The position numbers and the translations under genes are program-made. From Escherichia coli (GTDB taxonomy: Bacteria; Pseudomonadota; Gammaproteobacteria; Enterobacterales; Enterobacteriaceae), in the NCBI RefSeq assembly GCF_030013205.1, contig NZ_CP122648.1: 64,000 nt of DNA, one strand, 5' to 3'. The notes beneath the pieces are model-generated. The model saw only the letters and a program-made list of their open reading frames with translations, was not told where the DNA came from and did no database searches. Shown piece by piece: positions 17,000 through 58,964 of this stretch; the first letter of the stretch is position 1, and each line of letters opens with the position of its first letter.

Positions 17000-17290
17000 G
17001 GCGATCACCTTTGTAGTTAGGTTAATCACCACCGCTGAGACCAATCAGATGGTGGTGAACTGTGCAGAGTTGGTCTTACCGGCTACAAAGGAACCCGGCG
17101 CACCTTTCGGTGCCCCCACACAGCCCACCATAGAATAGGTGCGCTTTACACATAAAAAAACCGCTTATGCGGCATATGTGCCTCTGTAGTAATCCGGGAG
17201 ACCAATCCCGGCACTGGATTTTGCCAGTGCCCGATTACTATGGCACAAGAGGAGTGCGATGTAAATTTACCGCAAAGGTAATGATAAACG
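17000..17290 (-). other. Long structured 5' leader of the antirepressor gene, containing an intrinsic terminator (plus coords about 17154-17172) and several hairpins
   Basis: Minus-strand reading: GCACTGG..CCAGTGC, CGGGA..CCCGG, CCGCATAAGCGG+TTTTTTT, GCACC-GAAA-GGTGC, TCACCACC..GGTGGTGA; 10-nt GATTGGTCTC repeated in two loops. Confidence 0.45.
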
Positions 17291-56291: not shown

Positions 56292-57326
56292 ATGGCTTAC
56301 TCTGTTCAAAAGTCGCGCCTGGCAAAGGTTGCGGGTGTTTCGCTTGTTTTATTACTCGCTGCCTGTAGTTCTGACTCACGCTATAAGCGTCAGGTCAGTG
56401 GTGATGAAGCCTACCTGGAAGCGGCACCGCTTGCGGAGCTTCATGCCCCGGCTGGAATGATTTTGCCGGTGACCTCCGGTGATTATGCAATCCCGGTGAC
56501 CAACGGTAGTGGTGCTGTCGGTAAGGCGCTGGACATTCGTCCACCAGCCCAGCCGCTGGCACTGGTTTCTGGCGCGCGTACCCAGTTCACGGGCGATACC
56601 GCTTCATTGCTGGTGGAAAATGGTCGTGGCAATACTCTGTGGCCGCAGGTGGTTAGCGTGCTGCAGGCGAAAAACTACACCATCACCCAACGTGATGATG
56701 CTGGTCAGACACTGACCACCGATTGGGTACAATGGAACCGTCTGGACGAAGACGAGCAGTATCGTGGTCGTTATCAAATCTCTGTTAAGCCGCAGGGTTA
56801 TCAGCAGGCGGTTACGGTTAAACTGCTGAACCTGGAACAGGCGGGCAAACCGGTTGCAGACGCGGCTTCCATGCAGCGTTACAGCACGGAGATGATGAAC
56901 GTTATTTCCGCCGGTCTGGATAAATCTGCCACTGACGCCGCGAACGCTGCGCAAAATCGTGCCTCCACCACTATGGACGTACAAAGTGCAGCTGATGACA
57001 CCGGTTTACCGATGCTGGTCGTACGCGGGCCGTTCAATGTGGTTTGGCAACGTCTGCCAGCGGCGCTGGAAAAAGTGGGCATGAAAGTGACCGACAGCAC
57101 CCGTTCGCAGGGCAACATGGCCGTAACTTACAAGCCGCTGTCTGACAGCGACTGGCAGGAACTGGGCGCGAGCGATCCAGGCCTGGCATCCGGTGACTAT
57201 AAACTGCAGGTTGGCGATTTAGATAACCGCAGCAGCCTACAGTTCATCGATCCGAAAGGTCATACTCTGACTCAGAGTCAGAACGACGCGCTGGTAGCTG
57301 TCTTCCAGGCTGCGTTTAGCAAGTAA
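56292..57326 (+). CDS. bamC: Outer membrane protein assembly factor BamC (NlpB) lipoprotein
   Basis: 344-aa ORF with lipobox LAACSS. Confidence 0.9.
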
Positions 57327-57344
57327 AAATACAGGGCTGGAGTC

Positions 57345-58065
57345 ATCCGGCCCTTTTTTTGTGCACAGAAAACCCCCAGCTAGGCTGGGGGTTCCGGAAA
57401 GCTTTCAGCTTTGAGCCAGTTATTAAAACCCCTTTTGATTTGTTAAAACACCTTGCGGTCTGGCAACTGCAAGTGTCAAACAAGAAATCAAAAGGGGGTC
57501 CCAATGGGGAACGAAAAGAGCTTAGCGCACACCCGATGGAACTGTAAATATCACATAGTTTTTGCGCCAAAATACCGAAGACAGGTGTTCTACAGAGAGA
57601 AGCGTAGAGCAATAGGCAGTATTTTGAGAAAGCTGTGTGAGTGGAAAAGCGTACGGATTCTGGAAGCTGAATGCTGTGCAGATCATATCCATATGCTTGT
57701 GGAGATCCCGCCCAAAATGAGCGTATCCGGGTTTATGGGATATCTGAAAGGGAAAAGCAGTCTGATGCTTTACGAGCAGTTTGGTGATTTGAAATTCAAA
57801 TACAGGAACAGGGAGTTCTGGTGCAGAGGGTACTACGTCGATACAGTGGGTAAGAACACGGCGAAGATACAGGATTACATAAAGCACCAGCTTGAAGAGG
57901 ATAAAATGGGAGAGCAGTTATCGATTCCCTATCCGGGCAGCCCGTTTACGGGCCGTAAGTAACGAAGTTGGATGCAAATGTCAGATCGTGTGCGCCTGTT
58001 AGGGCGCGGCTGGTAAGAGAGCCTTATAGGCGCATTTGAAAAACCTCCGGCTATGCCGGAGGATA
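57345..58065 (+). mobile_element. IS200-type insertion element (boundaries approximate) between bamC and purC
   Basis: Contains a 152-aa IS200 HUH transposase gene flanked by terminal hairpins (CCCCCAGC-TAG-GCTGGGGG near 57375; CCTCCGGC-TAT-GCCGGAGG near 58043); enlarges the intergenic region by about 0.7 kb. Confidence 0.6.
57504..57962 (+). CDS. tnpA: IS200 family HUH transposase TnpA
   Basis: MGNEKSLAHTRWNCKYHIVFAPKYRRQVFYREKRRAIGSIL...HIHMLVEIPPKMSVSGFMGYLKGKSS... with HxH motif and catalytic Tyr region. Confidence 0.85.
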   Translation: MGNEKSLAHTRWNCKYHIVFAPKYRRQVFYREKRRAIGSILRKLCEWKSVRILEAECCADHIHMLVEIPPKMSVSGFMGYLKGKSSLMLYEQFGDLKFKYRNREFWCRGYYVDTVGKNTAKIQDYIKHQLEEDKMGEQLSIPYPGSPFTGRK

Positions 58066-58081
58066 TTTATTCTGATATGAT

Positions 58082-58097
58082 ACGCAAACGTGTGCGT
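58082..58097. promoter_or_regulatory. PurR operator upstream of purC
   Basis: ACGCAAACGTGTGCGT, 15/16 to palindromic PurR box. Confidence 0.6.
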
Positions 58098-58143
58098 CGG
58101 CAGAAAAATGCGATTTTAGCGGTAATTCGCACAAAATTTGTTT

Positions 58144-58187
<44 letters not shown>

Positions 58188-58250
58188 ACATCCGGCACAC
58201 CAGACAGCAAAAGATTTTAAAACGTTAATTCACACCCAGGAGTGATAAAG

Positions 58251-58964
58251 ATGCAAAAGCAAGCTGAGTTGTATCGTGGTAAAGCGAAAACCGTATACAG
58301 CACGGAAAACCCGGACCTGTTGGTGCTCGAATTCCGCAATGATACGTCAGCAGGGGATGGCGCGCGCATTGAGCAGTTTGATCGCAAAGGTATGGTGAAC
58401 AACAAGTTCAACTACTCCATTATGAGCAAACTGGCTGAAGCGGGTATCCCGACTCAAATGGAGCGTCTGCTCTCCGATACCGAATGTCTGGTGAAAAAGC
58501 TGGATATGGTGCCGGTTGAGTGTGTCGTGCGTAACCGTGCTGCTGGATCTCTGGTGAAACGTCTTGGAATCGAAGAAGGTATTGAGCTGAACCCACCGCT
58601 GTTCGATCTGTTCCTGAAAAACGACGCCATGCACGATCCGATGGTCAACGAATCTTACTGCGAAACCTTTGGCTGGGTGAGCAAAGAGAACCTGGCGCGT
58701 ATGAAAGAGCTGACCTACAAAGCGAACGACGTGCTGAAAAAACTGTTCGATGATGCTGGTCTGATTTTGGTCGACTTTAAACTGGAGTTTGGCCTGTACA
58801 AAGGTGAAGTGGTACTGGGCGATGAGTTCTCCCCGGACGGCAGCCGCCTGTGGGACAAAGAAACGCTGGAGAAAATGGACAAAGACCGTTTCCGCCAGAG
58901 CCTCGGTGGCCTGATCGAGGCCTATGAAGCCGTCGCCCGCCGCCTGGGTGTACAGCTGGACTGA
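58251..58964 (+). CDS. purC: SAICAR synthetase
   Basis: 237-aa product [31 protein letters not shown]... Confidence 0.9.

Follow-up and report, generated by a model that had tools for sequence, protein, structure and literature searches.

The present study analyzes a complete copy of the insertion sequence (IS) IS200C in a stretch of 64,000 nucleotides (nt) from Escherichia coli contig NZ_CP122648.1 (assembly GCF_030013205.1), referred to below as the window. The element is 712 bp long and lies at 57360-58071 on the + strand, between bamC and purC, in a segment of the window corresponding to E. coli dapA-bamC-purC-ypfJ. The patterns detected make it very probable that it inserted into the T-tract of the bamC terminator by single-strand "peel-and-paste" transposition. 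An earlier examination of the letters of the window (the sequence-only reading) had recognized an IS200-type element at this place and overlooked that it occupies the T-tract of the bamC terminator, which is the preferred target type of the IS200 group.

Results and Discussion

Comparison with strains lacking the insertion, as proposed in the sequence-only reading, allowed the ends of the element to be placed. When 57360-58071 is deleted, the window reproduces the empty site of the swine isolate CFSAN018748, its closest empty-site genome, with one single nucleotide polymorphism (SNP), located elsewhere, in the 1,381 nt compared. With a slash for the junction, that empty site reads GGCCCTTTTTT/CTGATATG and a K-12-like empty site reads ...GGCCCTTTTTT/CTGATATGATACGCAAACG..., while the window reads ...GGCCCTTTTTT (TGTGCACAG...GGAGGATATTTATT) CTGATATG... 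with the IS in parentheses. The exact reconstruction shows a simple insertion with no target-site duplication, and the two termini, TGTGCACAG at the start and ATATTTATT at the finish, are not inverted repeats. The right end at 58071 is fixed independently, because some 50 copies of the related Yersinia element IS1541 stay constant up to ...GGAGGATATTTATT and vary beyond it. At the left, the terminus agrees with the numbering of IS200 by Ellis 2015 (PMC4513863), in which the hairpin at nt 12-34 corresponds to 57371-57393 here, and the register within the T-run at the junction is ambiguous by 1-2 nt. Limits of 57345-58065 had been proposed previously; these were off by 15 nt on the left, where the start fell within the stem of the bamC terminator, and stopped 6 nt short on the right.

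The target itself, detected by a terminator scan, is the intrinsic terminator of bamC (57333-57359, + strand), with a stem-loop at 57333-57354 followed by the T-tract. It begins 7 nt past the bamC stop, has a 9-bp stem, 6 pairs of which are GC, ahead of 6-7 T, folds as RNA at -17 kcal/mol (z -4.25), and is conserved in Salmonella. After insertion the hairpin and six T are kept, with the first base of the IS as the seventh T, and we infer that bamC termination would be maintained. Two other histories of the site were considered and rejected. An ancestral target of seven T does not account for the extra T, all of the nearest empty sites having six, and the filled state cannot be ancestral given that approximately 5,400 E. 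coli genomes and the aligned loci of Salmonella, Serratia, and Pantoea are empty.

The element is IS200C, a member of the IS200 group of the IS200/IS605 family. Its tnpA (57504-57962, + strand) encodes a 152-aa Y1/HUH transposase, as the sequence-only reading had described, and is the sole open reading frame with a family match inside the 712 bp, so that the element carries tnpA only and no tnpB. In Pfam, the product is assigned to PF01797 Y1_Tnp (3.8e-38, covering profile positions 2-121 of 121), and it matches Y1 transposases in the PDB at values from 4e-23 to 1e-14, including the Sulfolobus protein 2ec2 (4e-23), IS608 TnpA 2a6m (4e-19), and the ISDra2 protein 2xm3 (2e-16). The residues H61-I-H63 (the HUH motif) and Y125-x3-Q129 (YxxxQ) line up with those of the solved structures. 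In strain K_EC180, whose locus is 100% identical, RefSeq labels the gene between bamC and purC "IS200/IS605-like element IS200C family transposase", with protein accession WP_000526135.1. The insertion is therefore already annotated, and earlier work has linked IS200-like elements to terminators, such that both belong to known biology.

The terminal structures expected of IS200 accompany the transposase gene, and with the RefSeq and Pfam assignments and the Rfam match given below they bear out a discrete IS200-type element. The hairpins had been described as perfect and flanking; they are perfect, but both lie within the element, in subterminal positions. That of the left end, AACCCCCAGC-TAG-GCTGGGGGTT (57371-57393, + strand), has folding energies of -18.7 kcal/mol (RNA) and -11.7 kcal/mol (DNA). 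It is the documented IS200 bidirectional terminator, which blocks read-in (Ellis 2015, PMC4513863), and presumably also the hairpin bound by TnpA. The structured RNA of the IS200 5' untranslated region, Rfam STnc490 (RF01405) at the art200 locus, was detected at full length at 57371-57494 on the + strand (cmscan 146.4 bits, gathering score 56), and a long stem-loop at 57429-57497 (+ strand; -36.6 kcal/mol as RNA, z -5.1) sequesters the tnpA Shine-Dalgarno sequence, AAAGGGGG. In IS200, the second stem (nt 69-138) represses tnpA translation, the antisense small RNA art200/STnc490 adds further repression, tnpA transcription is intrinsically weak, and transposition is rare (Ellis 2015, PMC4513863). 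At the other end, the perfect hairpin CCTCCGGC-TAT-GCCGGAGG (58044-58062, + strand; -16.1 kcal/mol as RNA, -10 as DNA), which IS1541 and other copies also retain, is followed by the tail ATATTTATT (58063-58071, + strand). Hairpin and tail together resemble a terminator. At both ends of the IS, a GAAAA(A) tract (57368-57372 and 58038-58043) immediately precedes the GC core of the hairpin.

A survey of IS200-group copies provides the evidence that the bamC target is of a general type. One genome per species was scanned for the exact 23-nt left-end hairpin, giving at least 120 loci that form a sample, not a census, from Yersinia, Vibrio, Brenneria, Dickeya, and Edwardsiella and from metagenome-assembled genomes of Bacillota, Mailhella/Desulfovibrio, Oxalobacter, and Saccharibacteria. 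Among the matches listed, a GC-rich stem-loop and T-run precede nearly every copy. A strict definition, i.e. a perfect stem followed by a T tail, applied to 92 of the 116 unique left flanks (79%), and the other 24 had mostly visibly imperfect hairpins. The same combination was found at 1.6% of random positions and at 11.5% of TTTNT sites outside long open reading frames of the same loci (binomial p ~1e-63 for 92/116 against the TTTNT background). The flanks follow the pattern T(-5) T(-4) T(-3) N(-2) T(-1) immediately before the element, with T at -1 in 114/116 and at -4 in 111/116, and the orientation is single throughout, with the T-run on the top strand. Six further E. coli copies of IS200C at other loci, after pheP, pqqU, htpX, dgcZ, and plaP and near iraM, all follow the rule of hairpin and T-run.

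Several observations in the surveyed copies stand apart from the target rule. Five of the six other E. coli copies (L130, L132-L135) lie between convergent genes, and in those five the right end meets or runs into the annotated stop codon of the gene on the other strand (ybdG, mcbR, yebQ, mgtT, or sbcB; the annotation gives mgtT as truncated). A TAA stop codon can be supplied by the right-end tail when read in reverse complement, AATAAATAT. Four Yersinia pestis loci (L068, L069, L071, and L115) hold head-to-tail IS1541 dimers with the junctions GGAGGATATTTAT/TGTGCCC and GGAGGATATTTATT/TGTGCCC, showing the same one-T register variation as is seen between the insertion in the window and those of the E. 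coli isolates MEW and 7CC, discussed below. Such dimers arise when one copy inserts into the right-end tail, itself terminator-like, of a copy already in place. Lastly, the exact left-end hairpin occurred in metagenome-assembled genomes of Bacillota, Peptococcaceae, Mailhella/Desulfovibrio, Oxalobacter, Elusimicrobia, and Saccharibacteria (L003-L063), often at contig ends. Either a near-identical end sequence has spread horizontally over a very wide range of organisms, or these occurrences are binning artefacts.

An association of this kind has precedents. Odaert et al. reportedly put forward terminator-like stem-loops as hot spots of IS1541 in 1998. A recent preprint described terminator-like sequences upstream of ISs, most strongly for IS200/IS605 (10.1101/2025.07.22.666184), and an IS1541 insertion between pheL and pheA has been published for Yersinia (PMC3082878). 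The latter, at a position where the attenuator would lie, may fit the pattern of hairpin and T-run.

By homology with IS608 and ISDra2, TnpA would excise the top strand as a single-stranded circle and integrate it into a single-stranded target. IS608 recognizes its cleavage sites by pairing them with the four bases that precede each hairpin on the 5' side. By analogy, the GAAAA tract that adjoins the hairpin core on its 5' side at each end of IS200C may read a T-rich target, and the T-rich cleavage sites (target, TTNT/; right end, TATT/) are consistent with such A-tract guides. The + strand of the window has positive GC skew and purC, which we take to be co-oriented with replication as in K-12, lies on that strand; the top strand of the element would therefore have the sequence of the lagging-strand template. 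The lagging-strand template is a known preference of the IS200/IS605 family. Once inserted, the element would be shielded from read-in by two terminators in series, that of bamC and that of its own left end.

A stronger proposal is that IS200-group transposases home actively to intrinsic terminators, the GAAAA guide pairing with the T-tract and the terminator hairpin being required as well. We advance this tentatively, as a possibility somewhat short of an even chance. A hairpin requirement falls outside the IS608 model, and may reflect mimicry of the right end or exposure of single-stranded DNA: the terminator hairpin may resemble the element's own right end (hairpin and ATATTTATT), or it could hold the T-tract in single-stranded form, whether in the lagging-strand template or within a paused transcription bubble.

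Certain points weigh against the reading of a peel-and-paste insertion into a preferred terminator target. The survey was selected by the exact 23-nt left-end hairpin and approximately half of its copies come from one Yersinia pestis genome. Pairing of guide and target is an analogy with IS608, and the A-tract and T-rich targets are invariant in the sampled lineages, leaving no covariation between them. In the carriers from mink and gull, described below, the left junction is one T shorter and the net insert 711 bp, and therefore the cleavage register is uncertain by 1 nt. The position of the purC promoter, and with it any effect of the insertion there, is itself inferred. Finally, the association with terminators could partly reflect survival of harmless insertions instead of targeting. 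In its full form, with purifying selection leaving only harmless post-terminator insertions and the transposase making no choice of target, this last explanation appears distinctly unlikely. The observed insertions would then be old survivors, which is in keeping with the rarity of IS200 transposition (Ellis 2015, PMC4513863) and with the preprint cited above, which reads the pattern as persistence via low transposase expression (10.1101/2025.07.22.666184). However, selection of this kind would not account for a junction at the fixed T-tract register TTTNT/, for the excess of hairpins over TTTNT sites outside long open reading frames, for an orientation that invariably places the T-run on the top strand, for tandem dimers arising through insertion into the terminator-like right end, or for occupation of one bamC T-tract on different haplotypes.

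The filled bamC-purC site was found in 19 of 5,426 complete E. coli genomes, always at the same position and in the same orientation. Seventeen of the carriers are porcine enterotoxigenic E. coli (ETEC) or O139:H1-type isolates with 99.6-100% identity to the window, and the remaining two come from mink (7CC) and ivory gull (MEW). There are at least three flank haplotypes among the 19, with 7CC and MEW differing from the window by SNPs that come as near as 33 nt to the right of the junction, and 7CC and MEW have two private SNPs in common inside the IS. The MEW haplotype is known as a 100% identical empty site with six T, and the window haplotype also is known empty. IS200C is present in 3,096 of the 5,426 genomes, at up to 35 places per genome, and 100% identical DNA copies occur in unrelated strains. 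Because the flank haplotypes are distinct and those of MEW and the window both exist empty, the comparison of sequences favours at least two independent hits on the bamC terminator. It is unlikely that one insertion event, subsequently spread between lineages by homologous recombination, explains all 19 carriers. Identity of site and orientation in every carrier and the separation of the IS copies by only 4-5 SNPs would be expected from a single event, but it is difficult to reconcile with SNPs 33 nt from the junction between the window and MEW or 7CC, with the existence of three flank haplotypes, two of them also empty, with a left junction that differs by one T, and with the private IS SNPs shared by 7CC and MEW.

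To the left of the insertion, bamC (56292-57326, + strand, 344 aa) matches Pfam Lipoprotein_18/NlpB at 2.9e-111 and agrees with the RefSeq annotation of an identical locus. To the right, purC (58251-58964, + strand, 237 aa) is intact (Pfam SAICAR_synt 9.8e-77; RefSeq) and carries a lineage-specific F56S; tnpA is co-directional with both genes. That the PurR box and the start of purC lie outside the element, as the sequence-only reading held, was upheld: the operator ACGCAAACGTGTGCGT (58082-58097, + strand) is intact, identical in filled and empty sites, and is the reverse complement of the PurR site of purC identified by chromatin immunoprecipitation on microarrays (ChIP-chip) and bound in vivo (Cho et al. 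2011, PMC3159470). The right junction (58071/58072) is 10 bp upstream of this operator. A repetitive extragenic palindromic (REP)-like palindrome in the purC leader (58154-58198, + strand) is host sequence, present in the K-12-like empty site too, with a partial match to naRNA4 at 38 bits, below the gathering score; the palindrome is polymorphic in strain MEW.

The promoter of purC is harder to place. A consensus scan of 57250-58300 found no canonical sigma-70 -35/-10 pair, and the promoter is therefore called from an extended -10 motif and its conservation: a candidate, TGaTATGAT, was read from the sequence at 58073-58081 (+ strand) and is conserved in the same place as TGaTAAGAT in Salmonella, where it comes immediately past the bamC terminator. 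No transcription start site (TSS) for purC was found in the literature, where Mendoza-Vargas 2009 gave only spurious "purc" matches and the promoter literature found concerned only Gram-positive bacteria. The candidate -10 would probably set the TSS near 58088, inside the operator, with the junction at about -17 and some 4 nt from the -10 candidate, and therefore all DNA upstream of the -10 region would now be IS. On this reading the native "-35 region" would have been the bamC terminator, which has no -35 match, and would have been replaced by the similar right end of the element, i.e. a hairpin and an AT-rich tail. TTGAAA in the right end (58036-41) was considered as a hybrid -35 and rejected, being 34 nt from the -10 candidate. 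Function of the purC promoter was likely retained after insertion, and preserved regulation of purC, as previously suggested, is plausible from the sequence, although with the junction adjoining the candidate promoter it is not guaranteed.

It had also been suggested that the terminal hairpin would block read-through from the element. Read on the + strand, the right-end hairpin (-16 kcal/mol) has an interrupted U-tract, AUAUUUAUU, after it; on the - strand its tail is UUUUUC, which makes a better terminator than that of the + strand. Blocked read-through into purC is nonetheless plausible, with tnpA weakly transcribed and read-in stopped by the bamC and left-end terminators, and the consequences of the insertion for its neighbours are presumably mild.

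Whether they amount to nothing at all for purC is evenly balanced. If the junction leaves the promoter, operator, and leader undivided on its right side, purine repression and basal strength could be unchanged, and such full neutrality is consistent with the identity of the PurR box and all downstream sequence to empty sites, with a candidate extended -10 that needs no -35 while the native and IS-derived -35 regions are both unlike TTGACA, and with persistence of the lineage in at least 17 sequenced isolates. Nevertheless, the junction is very close to the -10 candidate and the operator, promoter strength depends on the spacer and upstream DNA, and a derived change at a conserved residue of PurC, F56S, in the same lineage could hint at altered selection on purC.

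The reverse, that the insertion alters purC expression, is a lesser though appreciable possibility. The new upstream and spacer DNA could make the promoter weaker, or purine-insensitive read-through from tnpA or bamC could pass a leaky right-end hairpin. A junction at about -17 of the candidate promoter, the imperfect U-tract of the right-end + strand tail, and F56S in the same lineage speak for such an alteration. On the other hand, tnpA is only weakly transcribed, both the left-end terminator (Ellis 2015, PMC4513863) and the retained bamC terminator stop read-in, PurR bound at approximately -6 to +10 could act as a roadblock to read-through, and no loss of purC function is visible in the sequence.

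The amino acid change merits separate mention. At window position 58417, codon 56 of purC encodes Ser (TCC); the residue is Phe in K-12, in seven other Enterobacterales sequences, and in the carriers from mink and gull. This C/T difference is the sole one between the flanks of the window and the closest empty-site genome over 1,381 nt, from which it follows that F56S arose in the IS-carrying porcine lineage. A secondary reading would be that, in the porcine lineage, the promoter-proximal insertion and the derived PurC F56S together mark altered purC function.

Set against known systems, the copy in the window agrees in all main features with IS200C/IS200 of E. coli and Salmonella, i.e. a left-end terminator hairpin at nt 12-34, a stem sequestering the Shine-Dalgarno sequence, STnc490/art200, a single 152-aa Y1 transposase, and a right-end hairpin. 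Its 712 bp compare with 707 bp for IS200 of Salmonella (Ellis 2015, PMC4513863); there is no difference in kind and only the location is particular. IS1541 of Yersinia pestis and Y. pseudotuberculosis has a base-identical left-end hairpin, the same right-end hairpin and ATATTTATT terminus, and the same target of hairpin and T-run, but differs at left-end nt 5-8 (GTGCCCAG versus GTGCACAG) and, in Yersinia, reaches far higher copy number and forms tandem dimers. IS608 of Helicobacter pylori and ISDra2, which serve as mechanistic models of the family, have in common with IS200C the fold family of the Y1/HUH TnpA (2a6m and 2xm3, above), subterminal hairpins, the lack of terminal inverted repeats and of target duplication, and insertion in one orientation 3' of a short target. 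Unlike IS200C, they carry tnpB and use the defined targets TTAC and TTGAT with no known hairpin requirement, whereas IS200C uses a T-run just past a hairpin, read by the putative GAAAA guide. Group IIC introns, IS1397/ISKpn1, and IS110-type elements also adjoin extragenic stem-loops, such as terminators and REP hairpins, which limits damage to the host. Their enzymes and mechanisms are unrelated to those of IS200 and include retrohoming and DDE or DEDD recombinases with bridge RNA.

Elsewhere in the window, an Rfam C4 antisense RNA (78.6 bits) was found next to isrK (74.7 bits) at 17048-17230 on the - strand, and GC falls to 0.47 over approximately 16-32 kb. The C4/isrK stretch looks like a prophage immunity region, judging by these matches.

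Conclusions

In the window, the element is a catalogued IS at a harmless-looking intergenic site, and serves mainly as a lineage marker of the porcine ETEC/O139:H1 group. The junction next to the candidate purC promoter illustrates that a description as intergenic with an intact operator is no guarantee of unchanged regulation, here for a gene of purine biosynthesis, which is often important in infection. If active homing to terminators is true, every copy would be insulated from birth behind a host terminator, and at purC the terminator-like right end would replace the bamC terminator as the upstream context of the promoter. For the family as a whole, the survey points to target recognition by structure plus sequence, the only aspect of the finding that has some wider value. 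The strict siting of IS200-type elements in the T-tract of terminators across distant bacteria explains their low toxicity and dormancy.

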